Assembly: GCA_030770535.1 (NCBI GenBank)
Contig: JASVEC010000020.1
Span: forward strand, 434,001-498,000
DNA from: Batkoa obscura
Lineage: Eukaryota
Reading direction: 5' to 3'
Length of the DNA: 64,000 bases
The notes beneath the pieces are model-generated. The model made no database searches. It had not been told where the DNA came from and saw only the letters and a program-made list of their open reading frames with translations. The number at the start of each line of letters is the position of its first letter. The first letter of the stretch is position 1. Shown here in pieces: positions 1 to 60,737 of the stretch. The position numbers and the translations under genes were made by a program.

Positions 1-88
1 TATTTTTGTATTTAAGAATTTTACTAATAATTTTTCCCCTCATATAGCACTTAAAAGATAAAAAAAGTGATAAAATAAAAACACCCTC
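1..88 (-). mobile_element. MITE copy (family A, ~98 bp), truncated by window start
   Basis: Reverse-orientation match to the MITE consensus (tttaagaattttactaa...tagcacttaaaa...aaaacaccctc) followed by ATAT. Confidence 0.8.
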
Positions 89-490
89 ATATATCGTTTT
101 TTACAGTTATCGAAATTCCAAAATAGTATAAAGTGTGGCCTTGTACCATATATATAGATCCAAATAATTAATTACATCCCTGCAATTATTAATTAGGTTC
201 GTTCCATTAAAAGTCAGTTTTAAGTATTAAAATAATTGATTCGAGCTATAACTTATTTTATAAGTATTATTTTAACTTACTTTACTATTAAGATTAGTTG
301 AAATAATTATACTTACAATAAGCTTTACAAAACATCTTTGCATACAAATAATATAAAATTTAATTTCATCAACAAGCAAAGATAAAAAATCATATAAACT
401 TCAACAATTATTTATTATAATTTTTAATCTAAACCGAAATAGTTAGCTACTATTAATTGTAATACCAATAACAAGTATCAGTTAAAGATT

Positions 491-1276
491 TTAATAATTT
501 TGTTCAATAAAGGACTTGAACATAAATAACTTAGTATAGACCCCTGGGAAATTCTTTTGAGCACATCCATGACCCCATGAAGTAATGCCAACAAGAGTAG
601 TTTTTCCTGCTTCAACTTTGAAGATTGGACCTCCAGAATCACCTTGACAAGCATCTTTAGCTCCTTCTGGATAACCAGCACAGAACATTACTGTATCATT
701 GACTATTTTGTTAACTGATTTATAAGAGTCAACACATTTCTTAGTATCATAAGTAGGCACTTTTAATTCTAGTAAAACATTACTTCCTTTACCACCTGCT
801 GAAGTAGCACCCCAACCAACAGTAACCAATAATTGATTTGTTGATTTAGCAAATGTACCATCATCAATAACAAAAGTATCTTTTTGAGCTAAGCCCCAAG
901 TACCATCAATTTTCCAAATAGCTACATCATTTAAATCAAACTTATTGGCATCATAATCTGGATGAGCTTTACGATCAATCACTTGATATCTCTTACCTTG
1001 TTCTTTATCTTCAGTAAGAGATATATCATGACGATGGAAACTGGCACTCCAATTCTTGGTATCATAAACAGTACAGTGAGCAGCGGTGATGATCAAATTG
1101 TTTTTGTAAGCCATTCCACCACATAAATGACGTTTTAAGAAATCTAAACTTAACATCCATGGATATTTAAATTTAGGTGATACTTCATATCCTCCAATAA
1201 TTCTTGCAGGTGGTAGTACATCGGCTGCTTGAGATAAAGTGACTAATGCTGAGAGAGCTACTAATTTCAAATTCAT
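491..1276 (-). CDS. Secreted trypsin-like serine protease (S1A), copy 1
   Basis: Intronless 261 aa ORF with signal peptide, PPAR/IIGG activation site, TAAHC, NDVAI, and KDACQGDSGGP (S1-pocket Asp indicates trypsin specificity). Confidence 0.97.
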   Translation of the reverse strand: MNLKLVALSALVTLSQAADVLPPARIIGGYEVSPKFKYPWMLSLDFLKRHLCGGMAYKNNLIITAAHCTVYDTKNWSASFHRHDISLTEDKEQGKRYQVIDRKAHPDYDANKFDLNDVAIWKIDGTWGLAQKDTFVIDDGTFAKSTNQLLVTVGWGATSAGGKGSNVLLELKVPTYDTKKCVDSYKSVNKIVNDTVMFCAGYPEGAKDACQGDSGGPIFKVEAGKTTLVGITSWGHGCAQKNFPGVYTKLFMFKSFIEQNY

Positions 1277-1313
1277 AATTGATTTTTTTCATTAATTTTG
1301 AAGCTCTTGCTTT

Positions 1314-1406
1314 GTATTTATACTTTTCAAATGTACTGATTGTATTATTTAATGTTGAAATCACGTTTTTAATTATTCTTAATTCGAGCATTGAGTACAA
1401 TGGTTC
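1314..1406 (-). promoter_or_regulatory. TATA box plus conserved upstream block of the trypsin genes
   Basis: TATAAATA on the minus strand ~40-70 bp upstream of each trypsin ATG, plus a block ttattctt(a/g)attc(g/a)ag...aat(g/t)gttc conserved at ~1373, ~3669 and ~6347. Confidence 0.5.
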
Positions 1407-2756
1407 GCTTTTATTTTGGATTGTCATGAATTGTGAGAATGTGGAAATTAATTTTATGCAAATTACTACAAAATTTAATAATTTTATTATTTACTATATA
1501 TAATATACACATTTATCAAAACTTAGAAATAAAAATAATAGTTCTGTTTAAGATACATATCTCTTCTGAATAAGGATGAATTTTAAGAGACCTATTTTAG
1601 CGTAAAGTTAGATTTATTTACTTTTAAAGTATCTTTACTATAGCCTTTACTATAATACTATTGAGTGTCACCCTACAAATAACAAATAGCTTTTTCTACT
1701 TAAAAGGGTAATCGCTTAATCTTTATATTAATAAATTAATTCTGATAACTAAACTAGTGGCTTATAAGGCAAAACATTGCGTTAGGTACTATTCCTATCA
1801 TTTATATAGAATTCAATCTTTATTTCTATACATCTGTATAAAATTTCAAAAACATAATCAGGTTTATAAAGATTGTTTTTAATTTCAACTACTTTGTAGT
1901 TGCTTTTTTAGTTTTACTTGCCAAATAGTTATAAAAGTTTTTAGAAAGACAGAGCATATATCAAAACCGCCTTGAATTGTTAATTCTTTATGTATCTTTT
2001 TTATAACCTAATTTCATAGAATTCATAAATTGAACCCATAATATTATACTATTTTTTACGTTTTAACAAAATGTAAAAAACTTAATGTGATCATAGTTTT
2101 TTTAAGAATGCTATAAATTTTTTGAATTTTAAACTACCTAAAAATGATCAAAACGAAAATAAGATAGGATTTTAATACAATTTGAATTTAGACAAATTAG
2201 CTGTAATTTACTTTCAAATAGTAAAAGGTTAGCTTTATCCTGTATGAAATTTTTATTTTTTTACAAAAAGTTATTCTTTTATCTCAGAAACTATATGTAT
2301 CCCATTAAGTTGTATTATTTGATTCTTTATGCTCTGTCAGAATATGGGCTCAAGCCTTGTGTTTAAATTTAGAAATTTACTTTATGTCTAGTCATATTAT
2401 TATGTTATGCTTGTATCATTAAAGACACATCTTAAAAAGTAAAATTCCAAGAACTGATTATAGATAATGAGTCTTAATACATATTCTTCGAGAACAACTT
2501 TATTGTTAGGATTAAATTAATTAGGGTTATACAGTCTTACTGGTAAATGCTATTGGCTTATACTAACCTTTTACCTGTATTTTAAAACATATCTATATTT
2601 AAATTAGTAAATTAATTTAGTTAACATAAAACACTTAAAGAAATAGACTGAACAGTTTGATACTTAAAATGATAATTCGTTATTAACTCCAATGTAAACT
2701 GGAATAGATATTATAATACTAATTTTAATATCAATTACAAATATTAACTAAAAAGC

Positions 2757-3542
2757 TTAAAACTTTTGGTCAATAAAAGATTTAAACATAAATAACTTAG
2801 TATAGACCCCTGGGAAATTCTTTTGAGCACATCCATGACCCCATGAAGTAATGCCAACAAGAGTAGTTTTTCCTGCTTCAACTTTGAAGATTGGACCTCC
2901 AGAATCACCTTGACAAGCATCTTTAGCTCCTTCTGGATAACCAGCACAGAACATTACTGTATCATTGACTATTTTGTTAACTGATTTATAAGAGTCAACA
3001 CATTTCTTAGTATCATAAGTAGGCACTTTTAATTCTAGTAAAACATTACTTCCTTTACCACCTGCTGAAGTAGCACCCCAACCAATAGTAACCAATAATT
3101 GATTTGTTGATTTAGCAAATTTGCCATCATCAATAACAAAAGTATCTTTTTGAGCTAAGCCCCAAGTACCATCAATTTTCCAAATAGCTACATCATTTAA
3201 ATCAAACTTATTGGCATCATATTTTGGGTGGGCTTTACGAGCAATTACTTTGTATCTTTTACCTTGTTCTTTATCTTCAGTAAGAGATATATCATGACGA
3301 TGGAAACTGGCACTCCAATTGTTGGTTTCATAGATAGTACAATGAGCAGCAGTGATGATCAAATTGTTTTTGTAAGCCATTCCACCACATAAATGACGTT
3401 TTAAGAAATCTAAACTTAACATCCATGGATATTTAAATTTAGGTGATACTTCATATCCTCCAACAATTCTTGCAGGTGGTAGTACATCGGCTGCTTGAGA
3501 TAAAGTGACTAATGCTGAGAGAGCTATTAATTTCAGATTCAT
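2757..3542 (-). CDS. Secreted trypsin-like serine protease, copy 2
   Basis: 261 aa, IVGG, catalytic triad motifs intact, near-identical to copy 1. Confidence 0.97.
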   Translation of the reverse strand: MNLKLIALSALVTLSQAADVLPPARIVGGYEVSPKFKYPWMLSLDFLKRHLCGGMAYKNNLIITAAHCTIYETNNWSASFHRHDISLTEDKEQGKRYKVIARKAHPKYDANKFDLNDVAIWKIDGTWGLAQKDTFVIDDGKFAKSTNQLLVTIGWGATSAGGKGSNVLLELKVPTYDTKKCVDSYKSVNKIVNDTVMFCAGYPEGAKDACQGDSGGPIFKVEAGKTTLVGITSWGHGCAQKNFPGVYTKLFMFKSFIDQKF

Positions 3543-5455
3543 GTTGATATATATTAATTTATACTAATTTTTCTTAATTTTGTTTAATTAATTTTTGGGT
3601 TCTTCCTCTGTATTTATAGTTTCAGGTGGCTTTTTCTTGTACTACTCAATGTCGAAATCATGCTTTAATTATTCTTAATTCAAGCATTGGGTATAATGGT
3701 TCTCTTTGGGTTCGATTTATCCCTACTTAAAACGGTAACTGCTTAATCCTATATTCTAAGAAATAAATTGAAAGCCAAATTAGTCGGCTATAGTACAATA
3801 CACCCCCTTAATAGTTATACTTGTCATTTATATCAAATCAACCTTTGAATTATTATAGCGGATCAGTGTGCCAATTTTTTAATAATATTCCTTTCTTACC
3901 CAATAGAAATTAATATAAACAATTGCTAATTTTTTAAGTTAATACCTTTAACTATAAGAACTATAAGCAAAAAATTAAAGTATAAACTATAATACCAAAC
4001 ATTAAATATTGTCTTATTACATGATTAAAGTTGATGAAAAGATTGGAAATCTAAATTCATAATTAATATTATTCTTGGCCTAATCCCAATCTTAACTTCA
4101 TTGTTAGCCTTGGTGCGACTCTAGCAGTAATAATAACCCTAGCATTAATACTTGCGTTGGTTTTATATACATTATAGTCTTTTAACATAAGGTTATTTTT
4201 TGATGTACAAGGATAATTGAGTAAATCGTTGACCTTCTGATCTATTGTCAAAAGCAAATTTTATTGTAAAGTATTATTATAAAATTATCAAAGGTTAATT
4301 AGCTCTTGAAGGTTACTTTTGATTATAACTATAAGCTAGTCTAAGGCGTTATGTTTACTTGTAAGTGGCTATAAAATTGCAAAAAAAGAGAGTATAAAAA
4401 ACTAAACTTAGTAGTAAAATTTGATGTACCTTATTCATAGCTTATTTTTATTAAAATCCATGTTTAAATTCATACTATTAACTTTCTTTGTAGCACTTCG
4501 ACAAATGTAAGAAATTGAATGTGAGCAGTGTTTTTATGTTTAAGAGCTTTATTAATAATTTTTAAAGCTTATACTACTTAAAAAGTAGATAAAGTACTAA
4601 AACAAAAAGGGCATTTATATATTATTTAGATCACAGAAGATTGGGCTCTGGCTAACTTTTAATAGCAAAAGGTTTCACTTTAATTTAGTTTAAACCTTCA
4701 TTCAATAGTAATAATAAAATTTATATTTTATAAACCAACTAGGATCCAACAACCAGACTACTGATAGTTTGCGTGTGTCCAGTCTCTTCCACTGTTGGGT
4801 GGCGTTATATAAATTAGAGTTCGAGTCTATGGAATTTAACCTACCTAAGTCGAAGTCAGGTAGGTAAAACTAAATCGACCAATTTTCCGGTTCTCTTTTA
4901 ATTCCTTTCATATCTCGATAAACCCCACTTCACTACTCAATCAGGCTTTCTATACTTTTGCTCATCTTTAGCAATAAATCACTAGGGATTCTAACTCCAA
5001 GATTCAAAAATTAACTGGAATCCCATTTTTAGGACTTAAATTTTAGAATTTTTATTTGTTAAAATCCCAAAAGAGTTTAAAATGGTGACTCAAACCCTGT
5101 GTTTAAATTTAGAAAGTTACTTCATGTCTTACCATCAACTATTGTATTATATTTGCATCATTAAACTCTAATTTTAAAACGAAGAGTAAAATATTTGACT
5201 ATAAACAATCGATCATTTTATAGAACCTTTTCTAATACCAATATTATCAGTTTTAATCCAAACAATTAAGTCTGTATTAAAATATACAAAAACTCATTTT
5301 ATTCTGGTTATATGTGATCAATTTCGTAATGTTACATAAAGATAAAAATTAGATAAATACAATAAATTCTAACAATCATTTAATAATAGTTTTAATTTAA
5401 ACTGCAATAGTTGTTTACTAAATTTGATGCTAATTACAAGTATTAACTAAGAAGT

Positions 5456-6241
5456 TTAAAACTTATCAATAAAAGATTTAAACTTAAACAATTTAACATA
5501 AACCCCTGGGAAATTCTTTTGAGCACATCCATGACCCCATGAAGTAATGCCAACAAGAGTAGTTTTTCCTGCTTCAACTTTGAAGATTGGACCTCCAGAA
5601 TCACCTTGACAAGCATCTTTAGCTCCTTCTGGATAACCAGCACAGAACATTACTGTATCATTGACTATTTTGTTAACTGATTTATAAGAGTCAACACATT
5701 TCTTAGTATCATAAGTAGGCACTTTTAATTCCATTAATAAATTACTTCCTCTTGCGCCTGGTGATGTAGCACCCCAACCAACAGTAACCAATAATTGATT
5801 TGTTGATTGAGCGAATTTTCCATCATCAAAAACAAACGTGTCTTTTTGGCTTAAGCCCCAAGTGCCTTCGACTTTCCAAATAGATACATCATTTAAATCG
5901 AACTTGTTACCATCGTAATTCGGGTGCGATTTACGAGAAATCACTTTGTATCTTTTACCCTGTTCTTTGCCTTCAGTAAGAGATAAATCATGACGATGAA
6001 AGCTAGCACTCCAATTCTTGATTTCATAAATATCACAGTGAGCAGCAGTGATGATCAAATTGTTTTTGTAAGCCATTCCACCACATAAATGACGTTTTAA
6101 GAAATCTAAACTTAACATCCATGGATATTTAAATTTAGGTGATACTTCATATCCTCCAACAATTCTTGCAGGTGGTAGTACATCGGCTGCTTGAGATAAA
6201 GTGACTAATGCTGAGAGAGCTACCAATTTCAAATTCATCAT
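5456..6241 (-). CDS. Secreted trypsin-like serine protease, copy 3
   Basis: IVGG, TAAHC and GDSGGP intact; start at 6241 or 6238. Confidence 0.97.
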   Translation of the reverse strand: MMNLKLVALSALVTLSQAADVLPPARIVGGYEVSPKFKYPWMLSLDFLKRHLCGGMAYKNNLIITAAHCDIYEIKNWSASFHRHDLSLTEGKEQGKRYKVISRKSHPNYDGNKFDLNDVSIWKVEGTWGLSQKDTFVFDDGKFAQSTNQLLVTVGWGATSPGARGSNLLMELKVPTYDTKKCVDSYKSVNKIVNDTVMFCAGYPEGAKDACQGDSGGPIFKVEAGKTTLVGITSWGHGCAQKNFPGVYVKLFKFKSFIDKF

Positions 6242-7859
6242 TAATTTTATTATTTAATTTTTGTTAATTCTTAAGTTCTTGCACCGTATTTATAGTTTTC
6301 AAATCCTATGATTATATTGTTTGATTTCAGGGTCACGTTGTTTTAGTTATTCTTGATTCGAGTACTTAATATAATTGTTCACTTCATTTATCATATTTTT
6401 CTCTTTGCTTAATCTTTTTATTAACAGATTGTAAATTGTTAATTTACCAAAATCATGCGGTGGGAAGTGCTTTTTTACATATAAGTTACCTTATTCCCTA
6501 TATCTATTTTAACATTTAAAAATATATTTTTTAATTGTGTTAGCCAATCAATCAACCTCCCGGTACCCAATTTCCAGTTTTAACAAGGAATCGTTAAGTT
6601 TAAATATATATTTAATAATATTATATTAATAATAAACTAAGTTTATTTATAGTTTATTACTTAAAACAATATAATATAAGAATATTTTGATGAACAAAAA
6701 TAAATATCTGGCGAAGTTTATATCGTTATAGTTATTCGAACAATAAAATTGTTAATTTTAAATATTTAATCTGATTATCATGTTAATAGTTAGCATAAAA
6801 TAAAGTATTAAATGGTAAAACAAAACACTATAATTATTTTTTAAGCATGCTACAATACAGTTACAAATAGAACATTAAAACCTTTGTTCCTATCAAAAGC
6901 TATGATGAATAGCTAAAAAGTTTAGTTATTAAGCGTAGCTTAATAATTTTGCTTCTAAGTATACCTGGATTAACAAAAGCATTATTTGCTTTATGTTCTG
7001 ACATAGTTAAATATTAAAACCTAGAAACAACTTTGATTTGGCTTGATTTGGCTTTTTGGTTAATATTTTGATCTTAATTACACATTACTGTAGTTTCTAT
7101 ATATTTAAATTATGGCTAAAAGTTTGTTATGATTATAAATTATAAAGTACCAGTGTTTTCCAAAAGATTTATAACATAAATTCAAAATTTTGACTTTGAA
7201 TTTACTCTTGATTAACACTCAAATATGATGTTTATAAGAGTAAAAATACAAACTAATATTGACTTTCGTAAGCTAATGTACAAAAAATAGTTATTATATA
7301 TCAATTTATAATGCTTCAATAATCCTAAATGCCATTAAAAGTAGACTTTTTTGCACTAACGTGCCTGTCCCAGACTGTGACTTCATTAAAATTAACAAAG
7401 TCTTAATAAAAAGACATCTTTTGTAGCCACAAATCTAACAATAGCATGCTTTCTAAAAAATCCTTTTTGTATTGTCTCTAAAGCATCAAAACCTTGTACT
7501 TTCTTTATCCGATATATAAAACACCTAGGGCCTTATGATCTCTCAAGGTTTAAAAAGCCCACTAACTATGACTTTAAAACAGTTATTACTACATAATGTT
7601 AACGGAACAATGCTTCCTGCTTAAGCCTTAAAATTAAAATCTTTCTTAGTTAACTATTTTGATTTTTATCAGGTTTAATATGGCTAATAGCTTTGAACTC
7701 AGGGATTTAGGGAAGGATATGATAAAGAAGTACTGAATTATCTTGAAGACAAGAATAAAATCGATCTATTCACAAGCTGTAAAGAATAGAGTTAAGTGCT
7801 AATAACGATAATACGCGAGGATGTATCTCCGGGCCAATGTTACAAAGAAAGGAATGTAT

Positions 7860-7957
7860 GAAGATGCTTTTTTTAGTTTCATTACTTTTTCCATTTTTGG
7901 GTGTTATTTGAGCGGAAAATTTATTAGCAAAATTCTTAAACAAAAAAGTATATCTCT
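7860..7957 (+). mobile_element. MITE family A copy (diverged)
   Basis: gaagatgctttttttagtttcattactttttcc...aaaattcttaaac...tatctct; flanks GTAT/ATAT. Confidence 0.8.
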
Positions 7958-7970
7958 ATATTATTATTAT

Positions 7971-8074
7971 AAATTTATTTTTTTAGCTTCATCTTGATCA
8001 CTTTTTCCGTCTTTTAGGCGCTATTTGAATGGAAAATTTGTTAGTAAAATTCTTAAATACAAAGATACATTCCC
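7971..8074 (+). mobile_element. MITE family A copy (left end degraded)
   Basis: ctttttccgtcttttaggcgctatttgaatggaaaatttgttagtaaaattcttaaatacaaagatacattccc followed by ATAT. Confidence 0.8.
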
Positions 8075-8550
8075 ATATAATAGATATAAAAAGTATGAGA
8101 AACATATCAAATGTTTGGACCATAGAAGATATATAGATTTACTTATTCACCCTTCAGTCTACCCCAATATTACAAAACTGTATATTACTACATTAAGTAG
8201 ATGCTTGAAAAAAGACGATATTTGAAAGACATTTCACTGGTATATCTCGCTTAAAAAACTTTTATTAATGATATGAGAGCTGAAATATATATGCCTATTA
8301 ATAACATTTTTATCGAAGTGTTACAAAAATTAAAATACCTAGAACTCAATCATGTAGATAATTATTTCAGAAAGTCAATAGTATCTACTTTACCATTGGC
8401 TATAAGGGCATTATTAATTGAATATGGGTTTAACAATGAGATATCGTATTTTGGGAAACTATTAAATAAATTTGAAATACTTTACTTCTAAGGCATTTTA
8501 CCCTAGTACTTAATATAGTATCAAATCTAAGAGAGCTGATAGTAAGATAC

Positions 8551-8648
8551 AGGGATGTTTTTTTGGGTTCATTACTTTTTCCATTTTTTAAGCGCTATTT
8601 GAGTGGAAAAATTGTTAGTAAAATTCTTAAACACAAAAATACATCTCC
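8551..8648 (+). mobile_element. MITE family A copy abutting the 2.3-kb transposon
   Basis: agggatgttttttt...acatctcc; flanks ATAC/ATAT. Confidence 0.9.
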
Positions 8649-9964
8649 ATATGGGGTTGTCTGAATTAGTTTCATTATTTTATCCAATTTTTGAAAAATT
8701 TTGTATTTTAAAAACTTCGCTTAAAATTCTATAAAATCACATCTTTTATTAAAACAAAAGTACCCAGACATAGTTCTAAATCATTCTATTATAGCTCATA
8801 CTGTAAGTTAGTTGAATTTCTACTAGATCTTAAATACATGTTCTTATAAAACTTTATTGAGAAATATTTATTATCAACTGCTTTATAACCAACATTGTAG
8901 ATTTGTTATCAAATAAATAAACTATTTTAATGTTATGATTACATTATCAATATATTTCCAAGTTAATAAATAGCTGCATGGGAGGGAGTGATTAGCCCCA
9001 AAACTATAATTAACCATCCCTATATAGTACAAGTAATAATAGTTTTTACATATTATTACAGTTACTTGTTCTTTGACTATTTATTAACTTAGCTATCAAT
9101 AACTTAAGTAATCTTAACATTTAACAATCTATTTCTATCATTCAACAAACTACTTACTTGCTTAGTAAATATCGAAATTTTTAAATTCTCTGTTACCTTC
9201 GTAAGGTAAGCTGGGATCGATCTTTTAATTTTTCTGTTTTCTATAGACTCTATAACTTTAATTGGAACTATATCGCTTTTTTTTTGATGTATCAGATACT
9301 GGATAACAATGTAGTTTATTGTTATGTTTAATAAAGTGTAAATACTTTTTAATGCCCTGCATCTCTATTATTCTTTTTGTATTTTTGTTTCTTTTATACT
9401 TTTTAAATAGAAGCTCTGTAGAGATCAAATTGATTAAACAATCTCCTGCATATGCTGAATCATGATTCAATATTTCAGATAAATAATCAAAGTAAACTTT
9501 GCCTATTGTTTTATCATCTTTTAAATATAATACACCAAAGCCTAATACTGATATAGCTTGTTTATTATAATGATCTAGATTTATTGAATCTGGTCTTGTC
9601 CCTATTTCCATATTTTGTTTAAAATCTAAAATCATTATACAACTTTTTTTATTTAATTTTTTAATAGTTTCATTAAATGTGTTTTTTTGAGTATCAACAC
9701 AGAATTTATGTAATTTGTATAATTTTTCTTCTTCGTTGAAAATTTCTTCTATCTCTGTTTTGTTTTTTGCTGTATTTATTTTATTTTCAAATAACTTTTT
9801 TCTAACTGTATACTGAGCACATATATTACATAGATCCGTTTTTCTTGCTGGATTTTTGAAATTAGTTGGTATATATTTAAAGAATGTTGACCTGGCTACT
9901 GCTTTATCTCTTAGATCATTCAAATATTTACTATATATCATTCTTCTACTTTTATTTAATATAT

Positions 9965-10062
9965 GAGAGTGTTTTTTTTGACTTCATTATTTTTTCCATT
10001 TTCAAACGCTATTTAAACAGAAAAATTGTCAGTAAAATTCTTAAACACAAAAATACATCCCC
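9965..10062 (+). mobile_element. MITE family A copy nested in the transposase
   Basis: gagagtgttttttttgacttc...catcccc; ATAT TSD on both sides. Confidence 0.92.
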
Positions 10063-10253
10063 ATATATATATTATCTGATGAATATTTACTATCATTATT
10101 TTTTTTATTAAATCTTGATGAAATAGTTGAATCATTTAGTAAATATTGTATAATAGTTTCAATTTGGTCATCTTTAATTTTTTTGTATTTTTAATAATAG
10201 GTTGTAATCTTGATATTTTACTACTATTATTACTTATTTTTGAATAATCATAT

Positions 10254-10352
10254 GGGGATGTATTTTCGTGTTTAAGAATTTTACTAACAAATTTTCCGCT
10301 CAAATAGCGCTTAAAAAATGGAAGAAATAATGAAGTTAAAAAAAACACTCCC
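10254..10352 (-). mobile_element. MITE family A copy nested in the transposase
   Basis: ggggatgtattttcg...aaaacactccc; ATAT TSD on both sides. Confidence 0.92.
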
Positions 10353-11189
10353 ATATTGATTTCTATTTATATTAAACTCAAAACTCTTACATTCATCAAA
10401 AGAATATACTGAAGCTGTAGTTGATAATAACGCTACTTGCTGATTTTTATTTCCTATTTCCCTTAAAGCACTAATTTATACATTACTTAAGTTTATTATT
10501 ATCGATAGTAAACTTTGATAATATATCTTTTCTTTGTTTTGTTTTATTATAAAATTCCATAAACCTTGGGTTGTTATAAGTAGCTCTTAAAATTGACGTA
10601 AATGGATTATAATGTTTATATTGTGTACTCCTCCCTATTGTATTAAAATTTTCAAAAATTCCATTTCGAAGTTTAGTTATGAAAGTTTGCATTTTATTTT
10701 TATTTCAACAAAAAATAAAGTCAAATAAGTGTATTTATATAATTATATAATCATATAGTTATATATTATATATTTGTTAAATATCTAACAGAACTAACAC
10801 AAAATATATAGTTAGGAAAATTAGCTATTTAAGAAAAGGAAACAATTAAAATAAGTTTTAAATAAAGAGATTTAATTTTAGGCTTTTTAGATTTAACCGT
10901 TATATTGGACACAAACTTGAAATTTTAAATTTGGATTAATTTCTAAGTAGATTCTGAAACCAATTAGGACAGCCCCATATCTGAAATTAAAAGCATCTAT
11001 TTTATAATACTATAGAGCTGTAACCATTTACACTTTTATTTATAAAAATTTCAATCACTTTTACACCTTAGCCCAGCCTTAAATTTTAAACTTAAAATTT
11101 TATGTGTTTATTAATTAAAAGTTATATGAAATTATTATTTTTACTATTGTTTTATCACCAAGACTTTACTATTTCAACCTTTGGTATAA

Positions 11190-20850: not shown

Positions 20851-21044
20851 CTTTTCTTTAGTTAATTTTTTACTAATAAATTGTAACAATAGTTTTAAAA
20901 ATAACAAATAACTTAATAAACTAATTATTAAAAACAATATTAAAAACAATATTAAATTCATTAAAACTTTATTTTTTAACTTTACTTGTTTTATAAACTT
21001 GAGGATTCGTTCATTGCAACTTTTGCTTAAAAATATACCCACTT

Positions 21045-21119
21045 TTTTAAGAAGTAATACGAATTTTTCTACTCAAATAACGCTTAAAAAATAGAAGTGA
21101 TGAAGCCAAAACTCTCCCC
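21045..21119 (-). mobile_element. Partial MITE family A copy
   Basis: ttttctactcaaataacgcttaaaaaatagaagtgatgaagccaaaactctcccc. Confidence 0.65.
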
Positions 21120-21204
21120 AAATAGATTTGTGCATCATTATAGATGCCCTTTTTAAAAATTTCGGCTCACTACTAATTATGTCTTATCATAGAATTAAAA
21201 ATTA

Positions 21205-22487: not shown

Positions 22488-22582
22488 AGGGATGTTTTTT
22501 TGATTTCATTACTTTTTCCATTTTTTAAGCACTATTTGAATAAAAGATTGTTAGTAAAATTCAGACAAAAAAACACATCCCC
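22488..22582 (+). mobile_element. MITE family A copy
   Basis: agggatgtttttttgatttc...cacatcccc; TSD degraded. Confidence 0.85.
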
Positions 22583-22631: not shown

Positions 22632-22728
22632 GGGGATGTTTTTTTGATTTCATTACTTTTTCCATCTTTAAACGTTATTTAAGTGGAAAGGTTTTTAACA
22701 AAATTTTTGAATGAAAAAATACATCCCC
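22632..22728 (+). mobile_element. MITE family A copy
   Basis: ggggatg...catcccc; ATAT TSD. Confidence 0.92.
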
Positions 22729-30320: not shown

Positions 30321-30419
30321 GGGGATGTTTTTTTTGACTTCATTACTTTTCCATTTTTTTAAGCGCTATTTGAGCAGAAAGATTATTAGTAAAATTCTTA
30401 AACACAAAAATACATTCCC
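30321..30419 (+). mobile_element. MITE family A copy
   Basis: ggggatg...cattccc; flanks GTAT/ATAT. Confidence 0.92.
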
Positions 30420-30872: not shown

Positions 30873-30971
30873 GGGGATGTTTTTTTTGGGTTCATCACTT
30901 TTTCCATCTTTTAAGCACTATTTAAGTAGAAAAACTATCACTAAAATTCTTAAATATAAAAATACAACCCC
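30873..30971 (+). mobile_element. MITE family A copy
   Basis: ggggatg...caacccc; ATAT TSD. Confidence 0.92.
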
Positions 30972-31592: not shown

Positions 31593-31690
31593 GGGGCTGT
31601 TTTTTTTAGTTTCATTATTTTTCCATTTTTTAAGCGCTATTTATGTGGAAAAATTGTCAGTAAAATTCTTAAATACAAAAATACATCCCC
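31593..31690 (+). mobile_element. MITE family A copy
   Basis: ggggctg...catcccc; ATCT TSD on both sides. Confidence 0.93.
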
Positions 31691-31949: not shown

Positions 31950-33130
31950 ACATAATTTATATAAAAAATTTAAAAAATCGTTTTCTAAGGTAAAATTTGT
32001 AATATTCAATATCCGTTATGTTACAGTTCTTTATTAGAAAATTTTCTTTGATTAAAGGTAAAAAACTATAAGATACCTCTAAAGTCAACAGTGTAGTTGT
32101 TTTAATATTGGATATTGAATATAGATGCTTAGATAAAGTGCTATAAACATAATATGACTTTAATATTTTAGCATTGTAAATGTATCCTTATCTACAATTT
32201 GATGAGTTAAATTACAACCAAGTAATGTTAACTCCTATAAATTTGATATTTCATTAAACTTTAAGATTGAAGAATCTGAAATATTGAGCTTCAAGCTTTG
32301 TGTAATTAATAAATTTTATACGCGTCTCTTCTAATTTATTTATTTTCACACATTCAATACTTAACCTTTCCAATTGTGGAAATTGTTGATTTAACAAAGT
32401 TAAACTCTTCTAATTCAAGGCTAATATAATCTAGTTCAAGTACCTTTAAATTATCAAGTTTACTTATCAAATTTTCAAAAAATAGTATTTCAACATCGTC
32501 ATCACAACTGATTAGCAATGAAGTAACTGTTGATGGTAAATATGATATTATCAATATTATAGATTATGTAATCAAATTCCAAGTATTTCAAATAATAAAA
32601 CATCCCTTTAATATTGATTTTGTTCGGAAGTATACATTCTTCAACTGTTATATCATAAATAAGCGTTGTATAGGTAAGACCTAATGATAGAAAGTCTTTA
32701 AATTGATTTATATTTTTTAAACATCGATCAAAATTTGTATATAATTTAACATTGCTTGGATCTTCTAATAAATGCAAGGGTAGATTTAAATAATTCTTAA
32801 GCTTTAAACATTTGATACAATATCCCTGTTTTTTAATAGCTTTCTTGATTCTATTACTATAATTATTATAGTAGCTTCGACTCATACCTCCCCATAATAT
32901 TGGTACAATTACTTGGTTCCACTTTTTACAACAAATGAGTAAACTAAGTTTGTCATTAGATGAGAGGTGGTATAGCATTTGGGGGTGTTTTTTTTGACTT
33001 CACTACTTTTTCCATTTTTCAAGTGTTATTTGAGTGGAAGATTTGTTAGTAAAATTCTTAAGCACAAAAATACATTCCCATTTCTTTAATTATCTTTTTT
33101 TCTAAATCTTCCAGTTGAAAATTATTTTCA
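31950..33130 (-). pseudogene. Decayed F-box/LRR-like paralogue C
   Basis: NFQLEDLEKKIIKE[MITE]MLYHLSSNDKLSLLICCKKWNQVIVPILWG then LDNLKVLELDY; frameshifts between ORFs 32502-32978 and 32354-32554. Confidence 0.75.
32981..33079 (+). mobile_element. MITE family A copy inside the F-box coding region
   Basis: gggggtg...cattccc; ATTT TSD on both sides. Confidence 0.93.
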
Positions 33131-40699: not shown

Positions 40700-44919
<4,220 letters not shown>

Positions 44920-48796: not shown

Positions 48797-48803
48797 TGAG
48801 TCA
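48797..48803. promoter_or_regulatory. TGA(G/C)TCA Gcn4/CpcA-type site upstream of GCV2
   Basis: TGAGTCA ~440 bp upstream of the ATG; could occur by chance. Confidence 0.2.
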
Positions 48804-50988: not shown

Positions 50989-51076
50989 GGGAGTGTTTTT
51001 TTGGTTTTACCACTTTTTCTACTTTTTGAGCACTATTTGAGTGGAAAAATTATCAAAATCCCCAAAAGTCACCCCC
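50989..51076 (+). mobile_element. Short variant (88 bp) of MITE family A
   Basis: gggagtgttttttt...gtggaaaaattatcaaaatccccaaaagtcaccccc; ATAT TSD. Confidence 0.8.
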
Positions 51077-52477: not shown

Positions 52478-52575
52478 GGGGATGTTTTTTTGGCTTTATC
52501 ACTTTTTATATCTTTTAAGCATTATTTAAGCGGAAAAATTATTAGTAAAATTCTTGAACATAAAAATACATTTCC
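52478..52575 (+). mobile_element. MITE family A copy
   Basis: ggggatg...catttcc; ATTA TSD on both sides. Confidence 0.9.
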
Positions 52576-53085
52576 ATTAGTTATTAAACTAATGTGTTAA
52601 GATACAATATAGCGAACCTTCATGATTGTTTAACCAAAATAGCTCTATATAAAACTCCAAATTTAGAAACTTATGAAATATATAAAATCATCTTAAAAAT
52701 TCAAAAAATAAAAAGAACAAAATCAATAACGAAATCGGTTATCATCCTATTACAATTTTCGTTTCAATCAGTATTATATAAACAGTACTTTATTATTAAA
52801 CAAAGAGGATCCATACATTGACTTAAATTTTCGTATTTGACTTTTAATTTTATTTCAAAAATTAATCATTGAATTTCCTATGAAATTTGTAATAGTAAGG
52901 TTTTGTAATAGGAATGAGTGTCCTCTATTCATATCAATCAAAACCAGCTTTAGATGGCTTACGCATATTCATATTACTTCTCAGGTCTCCTTATCCGCCT
53001 CATCCGCTTATTTATTTTCAAAAATAGTACATCTATATAAAACAAACAAACTAGACTTTATTTATCTATAGAAATAACAAAATAT

Positions 53086-53181
53086 GGGGATGTTTTTTTG
53101 TCTTCATTACTTTTTCCATTTTTAAGCACTATTTGAGTAGAAAGATTATTAGCAAAATTCTTAAACGAAAAATACACCCCC
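53086..53181 (+). mobile_element. MITE family A copy
   Basis: ggggatg...caccccc; ATAT TSD. Confidence 0.92.
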
Positions 53182-53444
53182 ATATTCTAACCCAAATGCC
53201 CAACTTTTATAAAATAAACTCTTATACGATATTTGTTAGTACAAATTTCGTAGACCCAACATCTATCAGTATTTGCGATAAGTTTATAAGCACAGAATAC
53301 AATACAGAATACAGCATAGGATACATCATAGAATAAACCTCTTGAAGCATAATATCAATATAATATATTGAAATTTCACTGATTATAAGCAGTCATGTTT
53401 ATTGCTTTTCGAATTTGCTCAAAAATAAAAAATAAAATGAATAT

Positions 53445-53542
53445 GGGGATGTATTTTTTTGTTTAAGAATTTTACTAACAATCTTTCTACTCAAATAGCG
53501 CTTAAAAAATGGAAAAATAATGAAATCAAAAAAAACATCTTC
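53445..53542 (-). mobile_element. MITE family A copy
   Basis: ggggatgtatttt...aacatcttc; ATAT TSD. Confidence 0.9.
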
Positions 53543-54098
53543 ATATGTTTTTTGATTTCATTTACTTTTTCCCTCAATAGCTTTGGAAAAAGGGAAAAGT
53601 AACTGAAATTAATAAGAATATCCTTATGTTGATTATTAGTTGTGAGAAGTTAAGTTTTTTAGATTTTGGTAGTATATGTCGTGTAAAAGATGAACAAAGC
53701 TATAAAATTAGGCGTTCTGATAAATTTTGATCAGAAGTTTTTATAGTTAATGTTTTTTTTGATGTATTTAATATAGTAAAATTATTAACTTTATTACATT
53801 TTACTAACATAGACAAAAGCAAAGCAAATAATATTTTAAATGATAAAAAGATTAATATTTAAATTTTTAATTTTAATAATTCTAATTTGTCATAGTGTAT
53901 CAATGAATAGCTTAATTTAGTTCCACTTCTATTATATTTTTAATTTCTAGATAAAGTTGTATGTTTATGAAAACATTCTTTAAACACCAGATAACTTCAA
54001 TAACAGTAATATACATGGTATTAATCATATATAAGAATACAAAAATATTTATTAATAAATAACAAGATTAAACACAACTAATACAAAAAACACCTCAA

Positions 54099-55028
54099 TT
54101 AAGAGGCAGAAAGATAATCGGAATCATCAGAATCATCATCGCTATAATAAGACATTACATTACTCTTCTTAAACGAGCTTACTTCACTATCCACATCATT
54201 GAAATTAAATGGTAAACCAACATCATCTAAATCATCTAAGATTGAATCCAATTCATTGGAAGACGTAGATTCAACTCTACTATGTAGGATAGACCCAGAT
54301 TTAGCTGTTCTGTATGATTTCTTTGAAGAAGCTTCAGTATTGGCCACTGATTTAGGTGCAATAGATTCAGTATAAAATAAGCATTCTTGTGGGCTAACTT
54401 CATCGATAATGGAAGGATCTCCACCACAAATTTTAAACATTTCCTTAATAGAAGGAAAAACAGCTGAACTAGTTTGTCGATATTCGTATAATAAACCAGT
54501 ATTTCCAGGCCCAACGATAAATGTACCACCTAATTGAAATCCATCGCCATAAATATCTCCTGAGATGCCAATAGAGTTTGCTGCTTTTACAGCAGTCCTT
54601 GTAGCAAACGTAAGTAAATCAGATAATCCTTGTACAATCGACATCTTTGTTAACCCTAATGCTTTATGTACTGCACGATCAGTATCTAAATATAAATCCC
54701 AATCCCAATATTTACCATCAATGAATTCTTGTAAACCTACTTCTTCAAAACCAATACCAATTAATTTGACATTCAACTCATCAAAATATGGCTTAAGGTC
54801 AGATAGTAATCGAGATTCATATCGACATAGGGGACAACCAAATCTTCTCAACACTTTTAGTATGACTGTATTATTTTCCCAGAGGTTATTTACCATAATC
54901 GTATCCCCTGTTAAGCTTTGGACTACAATACCTTCGAGGAATCGCTTCTTTTGTTTACGTCCAAACGGCTTCAAATTTTTCATTGTCTTCATGAATGAAG
55001 TTTTATTCATCTTAGTGTTGATCATCAT
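54099..55028 (-). CDS. Peroxiredoxin-like 2 (AhpC/TSA_2, FAM213B-like) thioredoxin-fold protein with acidic Ser-rich tail
   Basis: LRRFGCPLCR, V.LIGIGFE, LYLD, GDGFQLGGTFIVGPG. Confidence 0.88.
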   Translation of the reverse strand: MMINTKMNKTSFMKTMKNLKPFGRKQKKRFLEGIVVQSLTGDTIMVNNLWENNTVILKVLRRFGCPLCRYESRLLSDLKPYFDELNVKLIGIGFEEVGLQEFIDGKYWDWDLYLDTDRAVHKALGLTKMSIVQGLSDLLTFATRTAVKAANSIGISGDIYGDGFQLGGTFIVGPGNTGLLYEYRQTSSAVFPSIKEMFKICGGDPSIIDEVSPQECLFYTESIAPKSVANTEASSKKSYRTAKSGSILHSRVESTSSNELDSILDDLDDVGLPFNFNDVDSEVSSFKKSNVMSYYSDDDSDDSDYLSAS

Positions 55029-57071
55029 TTTATTAATTATGAATTATAAAATCTGAGTTATGCTTTGTTTTTTATTTTGAATAAAATCAAAGATCACATA
55101 TATTAGATTCCTTGGTTCTTATATACTTTTAACATTTCACATATTAAATGAATATAAAATTATATACATTGTGCTTGAATCGAGGTACCACTAATGAAAA
55201 TGAGATTTTAAATGCATTATAGGTTTTAACTAACTTACTTTCTTTACCCTCCTTGGAAATTTTTATAACCCAGTAGTAAAAAATAGTATTATCTAATTAT
55301 TTTTCGTCTCTTTTTCCACATTCAACTAATCAAATACTCTTTTTCTTTGATTCTAACGATATGTTTTGATGCTCTTTTTTCTTTTGATCTATAGCTTATT
55401 TCTTTTTATTCCCCCATACTTTCCCCCTTTACCAATTTTCCTTAATTTTTATGCACGCTTTTAGTCATTTTTATGAAAAATTTTAAGTTGCAATCAAATT
55501 GGTTGGTAATTTATGCAGGTTTAATATTAACTCATCTTATTTTATCTTAAATAAATCTCGATTCTATCAAAGTTAATAGCATTAAAATAGTTTTAAATCC
55601 GTTAATAGGATGGTTGTCATGTTTTAATATTTACAGAAGTGTTAATTGTTACAAAAGTTTGTTGTATTTTTATAAATATTTAATTGAATTATTTACTCAA
55701 GTTGGTAAGTTTAATAGTTTTTTATTCTCCGATTAATATAGTCTTTTATTTTGTTACAAAAAATAATGAGTGTTTTTTATTATGGAGATAATCATTTAGT
55801 TTAATTTTTTAATTTAAGATCTCATTTAATTTAATACTTCGATCTTAAGGTTAATAAAACTATTATTTTTTAAGGTTTAAAACATTATTTTCAATAGACA
55901 CAGCTATTCAATTTAGAGCCTTGGATTTTGGTAAATTGGATTTTATAATTGTCCCCTCTTTTTTTGTTGGTACTAAAAGCAAAGATTTTTTAGCTTGTTT
56001 TTAGTTGGGGATAACAATTGATCATATTAGTATTATTATTATGCAACAAATTATTATTGTTAAGTACTATTTATATTACTACTTTTCATCTTGAATATAT
56101 ATATATTTAATATAGTAGTTATATTATTTAATTTATATAGTCTATAAAAATCTAAATTCCGACTTAATAATGATTTGATTTTAATTTAGTAATAAAATGC
56201 TAAAATCAAACATTTTTAAATTGAAACATTATCAAATTCTAGTCCTTTTAAAATTAAATAAAAGTTTTAAAACATAGATCTAATTGTACAGTTTATTGTC
56301 ATATTTTAGCTTTTTTACTCTATCAGAATCTAAAGCATAGAAATTATAAAAAAGTAAAATAAACAGAAAAAAAATTAGCAACACAATTTTAAAATATAGT
56401 ACTAGACATTTTCAAATTTTCATTTATTGAGTTTAACTATGATGACGACCTTTTCTATCTTCGCACTCATTAAATAAGAAAAATGTCTAGCTCTGTGTTA
56501 AAAAATTGGTAACAATGTAAAAATGATCTCATAAGCTATTTTACGAATAATAGAATCTTACTGGTTGTTTTCTTTTACCTTTTTAAAGACCAAATTACTC
56601 TTCTTTGAATTTAACATACTCATCGTAAACAATATTTTAAACGCTAAAGTATGTTCAATGAGATGTCATACCTATTATATATTTACTATCTTATTTCTTG
56701 TCCACTCTTCATTTTTTCAGTGGCAAAATCCACTTTAAAAATTTCTATTAATTTATGAGGTCATCAACTTCAACTCAGCTTTTAGAAAGCTTTACCCATC
56801 TAAGGAGTCAAAAAAGATGAAATATTATTGGATAAGGACAGTCTAAAACAAAAATTGAGTAGATTTGACCAAAGTTGAATCGAACTTGAGAATAAGCTGG
56901 CAGAAAAGAGATAGACTAGTAATTAAAAGATTCTATATTCATATTTTTTAAATAAAATGTATTCAATGTATTTTTTACAGCTTGTTTTATAGACATTGTA
57001 GTTTTGAATGGGTTTTACTAGTGAACTGTTATATCATGTAACTTTTAAAAACACGTTATTTGCACCTATAA

Positions 57072-57077
57072 ACGCGT
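57072..57077. promoter_or_regulatory. MCB-like box (ACGCGT) upstream of dUTPase
   Basis: ACGCGT ~250 bp upstream of the ATG in very AT-rich DNA, with ATTGG boxes nearby. Confidence 0.35.
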
Positions 57078-57323
57078 TTTTATTCCAAATCATTTTGACA
57101 AAAATAATTGGCTCAACCAGCAGAAAGCAGGAAATTTTAAAAATAGAAAGCCAACACGTCGATTGGTTCCTCTTTTTCTAAATAATCAGCCTCGTAGTTG
57201 ATTGGCTAACAAAAAAAACAAAATTTACCAAATCAGAAACTATAAAAATAAGCTGGTGGTTAAAAGCAAAAAAAAATGTTTTTATTGAAATTTAATCAAT
57301 TTTATCGCTTATCTACTTTAACT

Positions 57324-58239
57324 ATGTCTAGTCTTAAAAGAACTAAGGTATAGTTCTTTTCTTATTATTTAATTGCAATCATCATTAAAATTAATATCTA
57401 ATTAGTCCTCATCCTCCTCTGCTTCCTCTGCTTCCTCTGCTTCTTTATTAACTTTATCAACTAATAAAAGAGCAAAGGTAAAATTGATCCATAATTGTTC
57501 ATTTCTAAACTTGAATTAACATTCTCTTCTTTTAGTCTTCAACATCAGATACTTATGAAAATTCTTGCACTACTAATACTACAACTACTGAAATGAGCCC
57601 AACTACTAAGAAACATAATGTAATATAACATATAATCTCATTACTTATTGATACCAATTCTTTTAATTATAGTTCTATCACAAGTCTGTTGATAGAGATT
57701 CATTACTTTTAATTAAAAAGTTAAACTTGAATGCTCAATTACCAAAACGCGGTTCGGCTTCAGCAGCTGGTTATGATTTATATAGGTAAATATATTGTTT
57801 ATTATAAGAAGTTGGAATATTAAATTGAACTCTATCTTTTAGTTCTGAAGATACAATGATTCCAGCCCGTGGACGCGGAGTAGCGAAGACAGGACTAGCT
57901 ATTAAAGTACCATATGGTACTTATGGTAGAGTTGCCCCACGCTCAGGCTTATCAGTAAAGTTTGGTATCGAAACTGGAGCTGGTGTGGTAGATAGAGATT
58001 ATAGAGTAAGCAAGCGGATTTATTTTGAATTTCAGTTAATGACTTGTATTTTTTTATTTTAGGGAGAAGTAGGAGTATTATTATTTAACCATGAAGATAA
58101 AGAATTTGAAATCAAAAAAGGAGATCGTATTGCTCAACTTGTTTTAGAAAAGATTGTTACACCTGAAATTGAAATTGTAGATGAACTAGATGTCACTGTT
58201 CGTGGTAGTGGAAAGTTTGGATCTACTGGAACTAGATAA
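57324..58239 (+). CDS. DUT1: Trimeric dUTPase, 6 exons
   Basis: [54 protein letters not shown]; five in-frame GT-AG introns; S/T-rich N-terminal tail with KRTK/KRAK. Confidence 0.95.
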
Positions 58240-58785
58240 ATTGTGATGAAGCTGTAGATAGCTGTCTTGCTATTATATAAGGAAATTTGAATTCTAGAAT
58301 AGGAAGATGTCTATTTAATTATTATTATATGTATTTTTGTCCAGTATTAAGTTTGTTTCATAAAAAATTAATTGTACACTTAATAAAACTATTGACATGA
58401 TGTAATTTTAATATCTTGATAAATTTGGTATCATCAAATCCTTTTTATTATTGGTTTATCATTACTTCCAATTACAATAATATCTGATTATGTTGGTGTT
58501 AATAAATGCTATATACAGGCAGAACAGTCAGTTTTAGGACTAATTTTTTCCAATATCCTTTTCCAAAATAAGACTACTCAGTTGTATCCATTCGTTAATC
58601 ATGTATATCAAAATTAGACATATGATTCCATGCTAAACCAGCTGCAAAATATTTCATGGAGCAATCTTATTAAATTAATTTATGCATATTTTGTTCGTCA
58701 CCTTAGACATAATGAAACATCATTGAGTATATAAAGAAACATAACATTTTATTTCTTTATTTTTTTTACTTTGACTAGGTCCAAT

Positions 58786-60060
58786 ATGAGGAATTCGTTT
58801 AAATTTGAGAACTTGGAAAGGAAGATGATAAAAGAGGTTTTATATCATCTCACAGATAAGGATAAATTTAACTTGCTTATTTGCTGTAAAGAATGGAATA
58901 AAGCGATAACGCCCATACTATGGGGAGACATAACCCCAAGTTCATACTATAATGATAATAGAAAAGTGAAAGAAGCTTACAAAAAATATAGCCATTACAT
59001 AAAAACCTTGGACCTTAGATCATATTCGAATCTACCGGTGCATTTCTCAGTATACCCAAATAGCACCAAATTGTACATATATTTAGGTAAATATTTAAAA
59101 AAAAGGAACCACTTAAAAAATGTTCCTCTGACAGGACTTACTTGCACAACTTTCATTGATGGCATGACAACCAAAACATGCATATTAGTGAACAAAATCC
59201 ATACTAAATAAATATTTCAAAATATAAAGGATTTAGGAACTGGTAGATTGGATAACTATTTTGAAACGATAATAAGCGAATATTTGTCATCAACCATAGT
59301 ATCACTAACGATTAAAGACACTCGTGATAGTAAAATACCATATTTTGGAAATTTGTTAAGTGAGTTGGATGATTTAGAGATGATAAAATTGACTCTTATA
59401 AGTCCTAAAATAGAAGAGTTCGATTACTTTTTGAGTGAGCAGTATCTGCAGTTAAAAAGATTACGTATTTAAATTGTAAATGTAGATAATCTAGATCACA
59501 TAGTCATAAACTTAGACAATTAATTACTCAAAATTTGAAGTATCTTATTACGATGGATATACCATACTAGTGTTTAGAGAAGCACTAAGCTTGGGAGAAT
59601 TAGTATTAAATAAGCCAAATTATCCAAAACAGTCATAAATAATGGAATATTTCCAAAATTAATCAATTAAAGATATCTTACTGTACTAACATCTCATCAA
59701 AACATTTATATTCAGTATTCAATATGTCAAGGATTATTTGCTTAGATTTATCAATATATGAGGATGTTTTTTTTGCTTCATTACTTTTTCCATCTTTTAA
59801 GCGCTATTTACGTGGAAAAACTGTTAGTAAAATTCTTAAATACAAAAATACATCCCCATATTATGGTTATTTATTTTTGATCAGAGAAATTTATCCCAAG
59901 AAGAGCTACGATATAGTAGCATTAGAAATTATACACTTTACTTTAGTAAATGATTCTTTCAATTTTGTATATACATTGTGTCTTAAGCTATAAAATCTTG
60001 AGATGTTAGACTGTTATTTTAGCCTTGAGTCAATGTCTTTTGTTTGTAAAAAGGAGCTGC
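58786..60060 (+). pseudogene. Decayed F-box/LRR-like paralogue D
   Basis: MRNSFKFENLERKMIKEVLYHLTDKDKFNLLICCKEWNKAITPILWG; stop at 59209-59211, further LRR-like fragments, MITE at 59760. Confidence 0.75.
59760..59857 (+). mobile_element. MITE family A copy
   Basis: gaggatg...catcccc; ATAT TSD. Confidence 0.92.
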
Positions 60061-60472
60061 TATTAGATCATGGCATCACTAATATATTTTTCAACGTTTG
60101 TTATACTTTAAATTTAAATATTTTAATTGGCTATATTTTAGTATCATAAAAGTATAAGGTCATTTCAAATTTCAGAGCCAAATGGTTATCTAAAGAAGTA
60201 TATGGAAGAGCATAATTCGGCCATTATATAAAAATCGTTTTACAGCCTTTGATATATAATATATATACGTAGTTTATCTTCTATATGTAATGATCTCATT
60301 ATAAAAAATAAAGTTTGTTCTTTCTTAAATTAGTCGATTTTGTTCTATCAACTGACAATATATATTATAAATAAAATTATATGAAAGTTATATTAGGGTA
60401 TTACCAAAGCTTTAATAAATTTATACTAAAATGTAATATACTATGACGATTTTTTTTAACGACAGCATATAT

Positions 60473-60569
60473 CAGAATGTTTTTTTAATTTCATTACTTT
60501 TCCATTTTTTAAGTGCTATTTGAATGGAAAGATTGTTAGTAAAATTCTTAAACAAAAAAATACATCCCC
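60473..60569 (+). mobile_element. MITE family A copy
   Basis: cagaatgtttttt...catcccc; ATAT TSD. Confidence 0.88.
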
Positions 60570-60638
60570 ATATATATATTTACAATAATGCCGCTTTATT
60601 TTCTGATAAGCTACAGATCTTTGTTGTTAATATGATAT

Positions 60639-60737
60639 GGGGATGTGTTTTTGTATTTAAGAATTTTACTAGCAATTTTTCCACTCAAATAGCGCTTAAA
60701 AGGTGGAAAAAGTAATGAAGCCAAAAAAAACATCCCC
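60639..60737 (-). mobile_element. MITE family A copy
   Basis: ggggatgtgtttttg...aaaacatcccc; ATAT TSD. Confidence 0.93.

Follow-up and report, generated by a model that had tools for sequence, protein, structure and literature searches.

A dense family of 98-bp MITEs in an entomophthoralean fungus and its probable spread by a Sola2-type transposase

Gene content and repeats of the window

The 64,000-nucleotide stretch of Batkoa obscura DNA analysed here (assembly GCA_030770535.1, contig JASVEC010000020.1, positions 434,001 to 498,000; hereafter the window) has a GC content of 26.5% and carries intron-bearing eukaryotic genes together with many copies of one short repeat. Among the genes are three encoding trypsins and others encoding a Ras protein, a kinase, a DEAH helicase and the P protein of glycine decarboxylase. 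The repeat is very probably a 98-bp non-autonomous miniature inverted-repeat transposable element (MITE) that has short terminal inverted repeats (TIRs), generates 4-bp target site duplications (TSDs) and was likely spread by a Sola2-type DDD transposase.

Anatomy and abundance of the MITE family

A profile seeded with five copies was searched over the window with nhmmer and detected 21 separate loci scoring 20.9 to 96.7 bits (Table 1); the five seeds match by construction, the remaining 16 being non-seed copies. The top control scores were 7.2 bits in 10 dinucleotide shuffles and 8.0 bits in the reversed window. The copies are 88–99 bp long (majority consensus 99 bp), lie on both strands (15 plus, 6 minus) and occupy 3.2% of the window. 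The consensus carries perfect 8-bp TIRs (GGGGATGT), extending to 13 of 14 bases, and shows no match to a transposase, to Rfam or to tRNAs. The anatomy directly observed is that of a MITE, i.e. a short non-coding element (the size limit given in PMC5199201 is 800 bp) with TIRs and a TSD, present in high copy number with a uniform length. The initial annotation, which had counted about 20 copies of a ~98-bp MITE in both orientations, agrees with these figures, and the short-ORF (open reading frame) peptide that it attributed to the repeat is indeed frame 1 of it. Its spacing of about one copy per 3 kb holds as an average (one copy per 3.0 kb) but hides an uneven distribution: the copies are clumped, 10 of the 20 gaps being shorter than 1 kb (P = 0.014) and the longest reaching 18 kb (P = 0.02).

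In four DNA runs, the summed contig depth at one MITE copy is 1,400–2,900 times the single-copy depth, a value that is not a copy number and that, like the depth over the long element described below, is read only as "very many" copies. A figure of ~8,000 copies is a mere scaling of 21 copies per 64 kb to the 25 Mb of contigs of run X1. A MITE and its TSD together add 98+4 bases, a multiple of three, so that in-frame insertions of 34 codons are possible, as at 59760-59857. A hairpin-like relative of the MITE with two left-type ends (53546-53624) adjoins the 53445 copy at a common ATAT.

Table 1. MITE copies and the related long element in the window (positions are those of the window).
Feature	Position	Strand	Remarks
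MITE, truncated by window edge	1..88	-	ATAT on intact side
MITE, decayed (20.9 bits)	4522..4615	-	TSD unreadable
MITE	7860..7957	+	flanks GTAT/ATAT; interrupts F-box-like relic
MITE, left end decayed	7971..8074	+	interrupts same F-box-like relic as 7860 copy
MITE	8551..8648	+	flanks ATAC/ATAT; right ATAT common to long element 8653-10976
MITE nested in transposase gene	9965..10062	+	TSD ATAT within (AT)n run; absent from other long-element copies
MITE nested in transposase gene	10254..10352	-	TSD ATAT; empty site = 99+4 bases; joint 10253-10357
MITE, decayed (34.5 bits)	21026..21120	-	
MITE	22488..22582	+	flanks ATGA/ACAA (2/4 match)
MITE	22632..22728	+	TSD ATAT
MITE	30321..30419	+	flanks GTAT/ATAT; interrupts F-box-like relic
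MITE	30873..30971	+	TSD ATAT
MITE	31593..31690	+	TSD ATCT
MITE	32981..33079	+	TSD ATTT; interrupts F-box-like relic
MITE, internal deletion (88 bp)	50989..51076	+	TSD ATAT
MITE	52478..52575	+	TSD ATTA
MITE	53086..53181	+	TSD ATAT
MITE	53445..53542	-	TSD ATAT
MITE	59760..59857	+	TSD ATAT; in-frame 102-nt insertion in F-box-like relic with earlier upstream stop codons
MITE	60473..60569	+	TSD ATAT
MITE	60639..60737	-	TSD ATAT
Defective Sola2-type DNA transposon	8653..10976	-	2,324 bp; 2,119 bp when the two nested MITEs are subtracted
Broken transposase gene	9258..10692	-	remnants 10692-10489, 10475-10353, ~10253-10101, 9965-9399 (tblastn, profile search)

Target site duplications and empty sites

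TSDs were read at 17 copies whose ends were placed by eye; this set omits copy 1, which is cut by the window edge, and the copies at 4522, 7971 and 21026, whose ends are decayed. An exact 4-mer duplication borders 13 of the 17, namely ATAT in 10 cases and ATCT (31593), ATTT (32981) and ATTA (52478) in one case each, as initially annotated; three further copies match at 3 of 4 bases and one at 2 of 4. Duplications of 3 or 5 bases were found at none of the 17. The random expectation for a 4-mer duplication is 1.1%, and permutation of the right flanks among the copies, which keeps the ATAT bias, gave a mean of 7.8 exact duplications, with at least 13 at P = 5e-5. The ATCT, ATTT and ATTA duplicates are direct rather than inverted repeats; therefore, the four bases belong to the target and not to the TIR, in line with what had been proposed from the first inspection. 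The flanks outside the duplicated bases favour A at position -3 and T at position +3: 24 of 34 such positions carry them, where the background rate is 0.355 (one offset out of four examined; P = 3e-5). This flank preference, A-NN-ATAT-NN-T, suggests a 10-bp palindromic target.

Insertion with a 4-bp TSD is also supported by paralogous empty sites, which are observed for both MITEs nested in the long element. In three of four DNA runs, contigs join across the copy at 9965 and leave out 102 bases (98+4). At the 10254 copy, a skip of 99+4 bases yields the peptide of three paralogous proteins (P0003, P0004 and P0005); skips of 99, 101, 102 or 105 bases match no paralogue peptide.

A long element with related ends

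A weak match of the MITE profile at 8653 revealed a longer element, flanked by ATAT at 8649-8652 and 10977-10980, whose TIRs start with GGGG and match at 18 of 23 bases. Two MITEs are nested in it and a third adjoins it, with a common ATAT. The description of the repeat as a MITE with 4-bp, ATAT-biased TSDs stands, but this transposase-bearing element had been overlooked and the superfamily left unnamed in the initial annotation; it is the long element that ties the MITE family to Sola2. Its contig depth (summed, 4 sites) is 47–1,094 times the single-copy depth in the four DNA runs, which again is not a copy number.

The ends of the two elements were aligned beyond the first 8 nt and the scores compared with those of 2,000 shuffles. 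The score of the MITE left end with the 8653 end was reached by 3 shuffles and that of the MITE right end with the 10976 end by 23, whereas the crossed pairings are at chance (1,016 and 1,196 of 2,000). Hence the MITE combines a 4-bp TSD with an end match in the correct polarity, as a non-autonomous Sola2 element would. According to the Repbase grouping rule for non-autonomous elements, the terminal 11 bases should show at most 1 mismatch (PMC4455052). The MITE and the long element agree at 8 of these 11 bases at each end; therefore, the MITE is no plain deletion derivative of the exact 8653-10976 family, a candidate origin that was rejected; its most likely source is a sister of the long element.

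Sola2-type elements generate 4-bp AT-rich TSDs (PMC3627910), and the long element has ATAT on both flanks, a single palindromic site. The GGGG ends of the long element were also compared with those of other Sola2 elements. Sola2 TIRs reportedly start with 5'-GRG, which these ends fit; the ends of PPa elements from Polysphondylium pallidum start with GTT, so that the rule is not strict.

The transposase and its relatives

The transposase gene of the long element is damaged by frameshifts, by the two MITE insertions and by a deletion of the second and third catalytic Asp motifs; it retains the KTDxCxxC motif and the first-Asp motif (DFKQN). Its ORF has 387 matches at E<=1e-3 (phmmer), and 47 of the 95 longer ones contain the three Asp motifs in order. 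The three catalytic Asp in an RNase H-like fold that are expected of a Sola2 transposase are thus carried by relatives, the window copy keeping the first only. One match (P0050, E=3.9e-15) is DFA_08389 of Cavenderia fasciculata, whose residues resemble, by eye, the DFa-2 row of the published Sola2 alignment (PMC3627910, Additional file 10). Moreover, P0004, a paralogue from Neoconidiobolus thromboides, is 31% identical to P0050 over 192 amino acids (aa; E=4e-19), a region that spans all three Asp motifs. Kinship with Sola2 is therefore observed by alignment, through P0050 and DFa-2. Pfam names no transposase family for the window ORF and the N. thromboides paralogues. A word-based search for longer relatives was negative, whereas a full HMMER search did find them; a first Atlas search gave only leads below 0.9, and a scan of viral contigs found no relative among 236 pattern matches.

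A homologue that is 31% identical to the window ORF (P0012) was modelled with AlphaFold (predicted local distance difference test score 88). Foldseek matched the model to Mos1 (E=9.6e-5) and also to IstA, and comparisons with integrases, Metnase and Mos1 gave Z scores of 10-11 and root mean square deviations of 2.5-3.2 A over 137-168 residues. The fold predicted for this homologue is that of a DDE/D transposase.

Of nine metagenome loci, seven were searched for TIRs and TSDs, and a convincing element was found at just one (L001), where an intact 572-aa relative lies within 18-bp TIRs that start with GGG and are bounded by ATAT. This 2.8-kb Sola2-type element (45-2858 of L001) is apparently intact; inside it, close to the left end, lies a 30-bp inverted repeat.

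Comparison with known systems

The closest described elements are DFa-1/2/3 of C. fasciculata and PPa-1/4/5 of P. pallidum (PMC3627910), whose transposase is homologous to that of the window family. The described elements and the window family have in common the TDxCxxC, DFKEN, WxDG..HF and HGKS..D motifs, short TIRs starting with G and 4-bp AT-rich TSDs including ATAT and ATTT; according to that article, the DFa and PPa duplications follow the pattern AWWT (e.g. ATAT, AAAT, ATTT). They differ in that DFa and PPa elements span several kb and carry Fanzor1, whereas the long element of the window is 2.1 kb long with no second gene seen, and in that the window family has GGGG ends, a fungal host and an amplified 98-bp MITE. 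In Additional file 10 of that article, the metazoan Sola2 transposases (Hydra, Aedes, Strongylocentrotus, Bombyx) share the DF.EN, SDG and HGK..D motifs but have an extra VCVC..H cysteine block and a third motif ending in D G.GG; the window family, like DFa-2, is devoid of this block and has D.HF. Degenerate fungal MITEs with relic autonomous parents are also described in Epichloe festucae, where 13 MITE families taken together account for almost 1% of the genome (PMC3227409); here, one family makes up 3.2% of the window, a local and not a genome-wide value. The Sola2 MITEs of insects listed in iMITEdb (PMC5199201) were assigned by TSD and TIR, and the likeness to them is one of description only.

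Alternative explanations

Several observations weigh against an assignment of the MITE to Sola2. The ends were set by eye and the data cover 64 kb only. As ATAT is palindromic, it cannot separate a 4-bp TSD from a 2-bp TSD next to T...A termini, and the empty site at 9965 also shows a 104-base skip in three of four runs, as the site lies within an (AT)n run. Since no more than 8 of the 11 terminal bases agree on either side, the MITE could in truth have been moved by a sister element that lies outside these data. The Sola2 label comes from a single published alignment, where DFa-2 stands apart from the other members; Pfam adds a weak DUF7869 match in 8 of 43 relatives (best E=2.3e-4). There is no intact transposase among the window copy and the six named N. 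thromboides paralogues, none of these six having an intact third motif, and the two flanks of the intact relative L001 are one sequence in inverted orientation, perhaps produced by the assembly.

A Stowaway-like MITE of the Tc1/mariner superfamily, with a TA duplication and a TIR of the form T...A, would explain part of these data. Tc1/mariner is the commonest group of DNA transposons in the fungal survey PMC5751038, 10 of the 13 exact duplications are ATAT and can be read as A-TA-[T...A]-TA-T, and an empty-site length of 103 suits both readings. However, ATCT, ATTT and ATTA are duplicated in the other three cases; the middle pair TC or TT of the first two rules out a strict TA target, while the two outer positions are directly probed by ATTA (52478) alone, a copy that does not have the terminal T. 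Furthermore, the sole element with related ends in the window encodes a Sola2-like and not a mariner protein. This origin is accordingly given very little credence. Slightly less improbable, yet still unlikely, is a MITE from another Sola group or another superfamily with 4-bp TSDs, the likeness to the long element being due to chance or to an old cross-mobilisation. Sola1 elements are said to have 4-bp AT-rich TSDs too, the terminal identity is just 8 of 11 bases and the right end matches only modestly (23 of 2,000 shuffles), but both ends match in the correct polarity when the crossed pairings fail, and the TSDs of the MITE and the long element have the same length and sequence. TTAA, the target of Kolobok and Sola3 elements, is duplicated at none of the 17 MITE copies, and membership of these groups is rejected together with that of piggyBac. 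The latter has the same target (PMC5199201).

The least probable explanation is that the dispersed repeat is functional, as a small structured RNA or as a peptide module selected in frame. Folding is indeed stronger in the copies than in shuffled sequences (z -1.8 to -3.7, 5 strands), a stop-free frame crosses 16 of the 17 copies, the copy plus its TSD is a multiple of three in 8 of 17, and MITE-bearing contigs occur in two RNA runs. Nevertheless, TIRs suffice to explain the folding, Rfam gave 0 hits and ARAGORN 0 genes, and substitutions occur throughout the copies, also in the TIRs. At 59760, the single in-frame case that was looked at, the gene has upstream stops, and no longer protein with the peptide in frame was found at E<=0.01 among 90 candidates, which is weak evidence.

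A model for the amplification of the MITE

If a Sola2-type transposase spread the MITE, its amplification can be viewed as follows. A sister of the long element would have lost its interior by deletion and so given rise to the MITE, with ~45-50 bp kept at either end. A Sola2-type transposase, such as the one encoded by the broken gene of the long element before its decay, would then bind the MITE ends in trans and excise the MITE. For reinsertion, the enzyme would cut palindromic AT-rich DNA, preferably A-NN-ATAT-NN-T, with a 4-nt stagger; gap filling would create the TSD, and the copy number would rise as the donor site is repaired. A staggered cut, gap filling and copy gain by gap repair are textbook cut-and-paste chemistry. 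Most of the surviving copies would be those in DNA that the host can spare, for instance decayed F-box-like paralogues or the transposon itself. To our knowledge, the chemistry of Sola2 insertion has been little studied; it could be tested with this family, which provides a MITE matched to a parent, a target consensus that reaches beyond the TSD, and L001 as a naturally intact relative.

Age and placement of the copies

The copies diverge from their consensus by 10.9% on average (range 3.1-21.6%), with a pairwise identity of 82%. A strain comparison with run X1, which differs from the window by ~0.5-0.7% (60 of 11,573 and 43 of 6,044 bases), covered 15 of the 21 MITE copies in two stretches. 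At 12 of the 15, contigs of this run lead from unique flank and enter or cross the copy; the other three could not be judged, 9965 and 10254 because their flanks are repeats and 60639 because no record is listed for it, and no orthologous empty site was found among the joints listed (15 of 1,634 and 15 of 1,032). Given this occupancy and the ~11% divergence, the older burst initially proposed is upheld: it likely long predates the split between the window strain and the X1 strain, and the family is probably inactive now.

Changes from C/G to T/A prevail in the copies (18.3% vs 5.1%), with 152 transitions and 27 transversions. The values by dinucleotide context are 0.20 for CpA, 0.16 for CpC, 0.20 for CpT and 0.24 for CpG; repeat-induced point mutation of the CpA type was considered and is unsupported, as the changes show no dinucleotide preference.

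Five copies interrupt decayed F-box-like paralogues (tblastx; weak Pfam support) and two interrupt the transposase gene, whereas an 18-kb block of conserved genes (33-51 kb) contains none; this placement fits survival in dispensable DNA. The F-box-like paralogues are five in number (7671-8482, 29944-30592, 31793-33168, 58735-60140 and 60878-62214), and four of them are split by MITEs. In runs X5 and X10 (positions 45000-64000), the intron 47531-47580 is spliced and MITE-bearing contigs have flanks of other loci; some copies elsewhere are therefore probably inside transcripts, the contigs giving neither level nor strand.

Host range and phylogeny

The window ORF shares 77-91% identity with five proteins named as N. 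thromboides FSU 785, from which this fungus or a close relative would be the likely host. At least six "hypothetical proteins" of this species (P0003-P0007 and P0009) are broken transposase pieces, so that its gene set holds an unmasked transposon. Among 20 further matches, eight have an organism name: one N. thromboides, one Conidiobolus coronatus (479 aa, with all three Asp motifs), three Smittium spanning two species, one Cavenderia and two Thalictrum. In an Atlas cluster at 0.96 (53 members, phylum given for 19), Zoopagomycota is the commonest phylum. The two Thalictrum proteins (P0019 and P0023) come from a Thalictrum thalictroides assembly, lie on contigs of 1.3-1.9 kb and fall near Neoconidiobolus proteins in the tree; they may be contaminating fungal DNA.

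The tree was built with FastTree from the 95 matches of at least 280 aa (59 were dropped, including one named Smittium protein) and was midpoint-rooted, without outgroup. Its six Zoopagomycota rows do not form a single clade (2 changes; 47 of 500 shuffles are as low), and the fungal sequences and DFa-2 lie in different branches. Most tree neighbours are unnamed, and the tree is compatible with vertical descent as well as with transfer.

MITEs, Sola2 elements and Sola2 MITEs (PMC5199201) are known already; the dense MITE family is new, its superfamily is not, and the unexpected part is the host group. As reported in the fungal genome survey PMC5751038, which covered two Conidiobolus assemblies and reads patchy fungal Sola elements as horizontal arrivals, Sola2 amounts to one case, in Aspergillus flavus. 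The repeat content of N. thromboides is given as 13.5%, partly Unknown, in a preprint where neither MITE nor Sola occurs as a word of the main text (bioRxiv 10.1101/2023.09.13.557621). The literature searched holds no account of this MITE family or of Zoopagomycota Sola2; the family may already be present in Repbase or in the N. thromboides repeat tables that supplement the preprint, and Bao et al. 2009 may also bear on the point. On balance, the data favour, though with considerable reserve, a Sola2 lineage of DFa-2 type across Zoopagomycota (Neoconidiobolus, Conidiobolus, Smittium) that profile surveys have overlooked and that drove the dense Neoconidiobolus MITE family. If so, the MITE would number thousands of copies, or ~3% of a compact genome, and rank among the densest single families in fungi; hundreds of defective 2-kb parents would accompany it, and a large part of the Unknown repeats, as well as part of the 13.5% of N. 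thromboides, would be accounted for. The mechanism would be ordinary, the novelty being the host range, with a high-copy Sola2-type element in an entomophthoralean fungus against the single fungal case of PMC5751038.

Other features of the window

A likely non-autonomous element of 520 bp (21205-21724) has TIRs of ~10 bp starting with GGGG, a TTA duplication and a low depth in four runs. We take such a TTA duplication to be that of Harbinger- or Zator-type elements. Two tandem DUF4112 genes (34561-34995 and 35371-35988) have an inverted 150-bp fragment 15 kb away (50271-50420, 83% alike). The three trypsin genes (491-1276, 2757-3542 and 5456-6241) are tandem, near-identical, intron-free and of secreted type; these trypsins are plausibly cuticle-degrading proteases of an insect pathogen.

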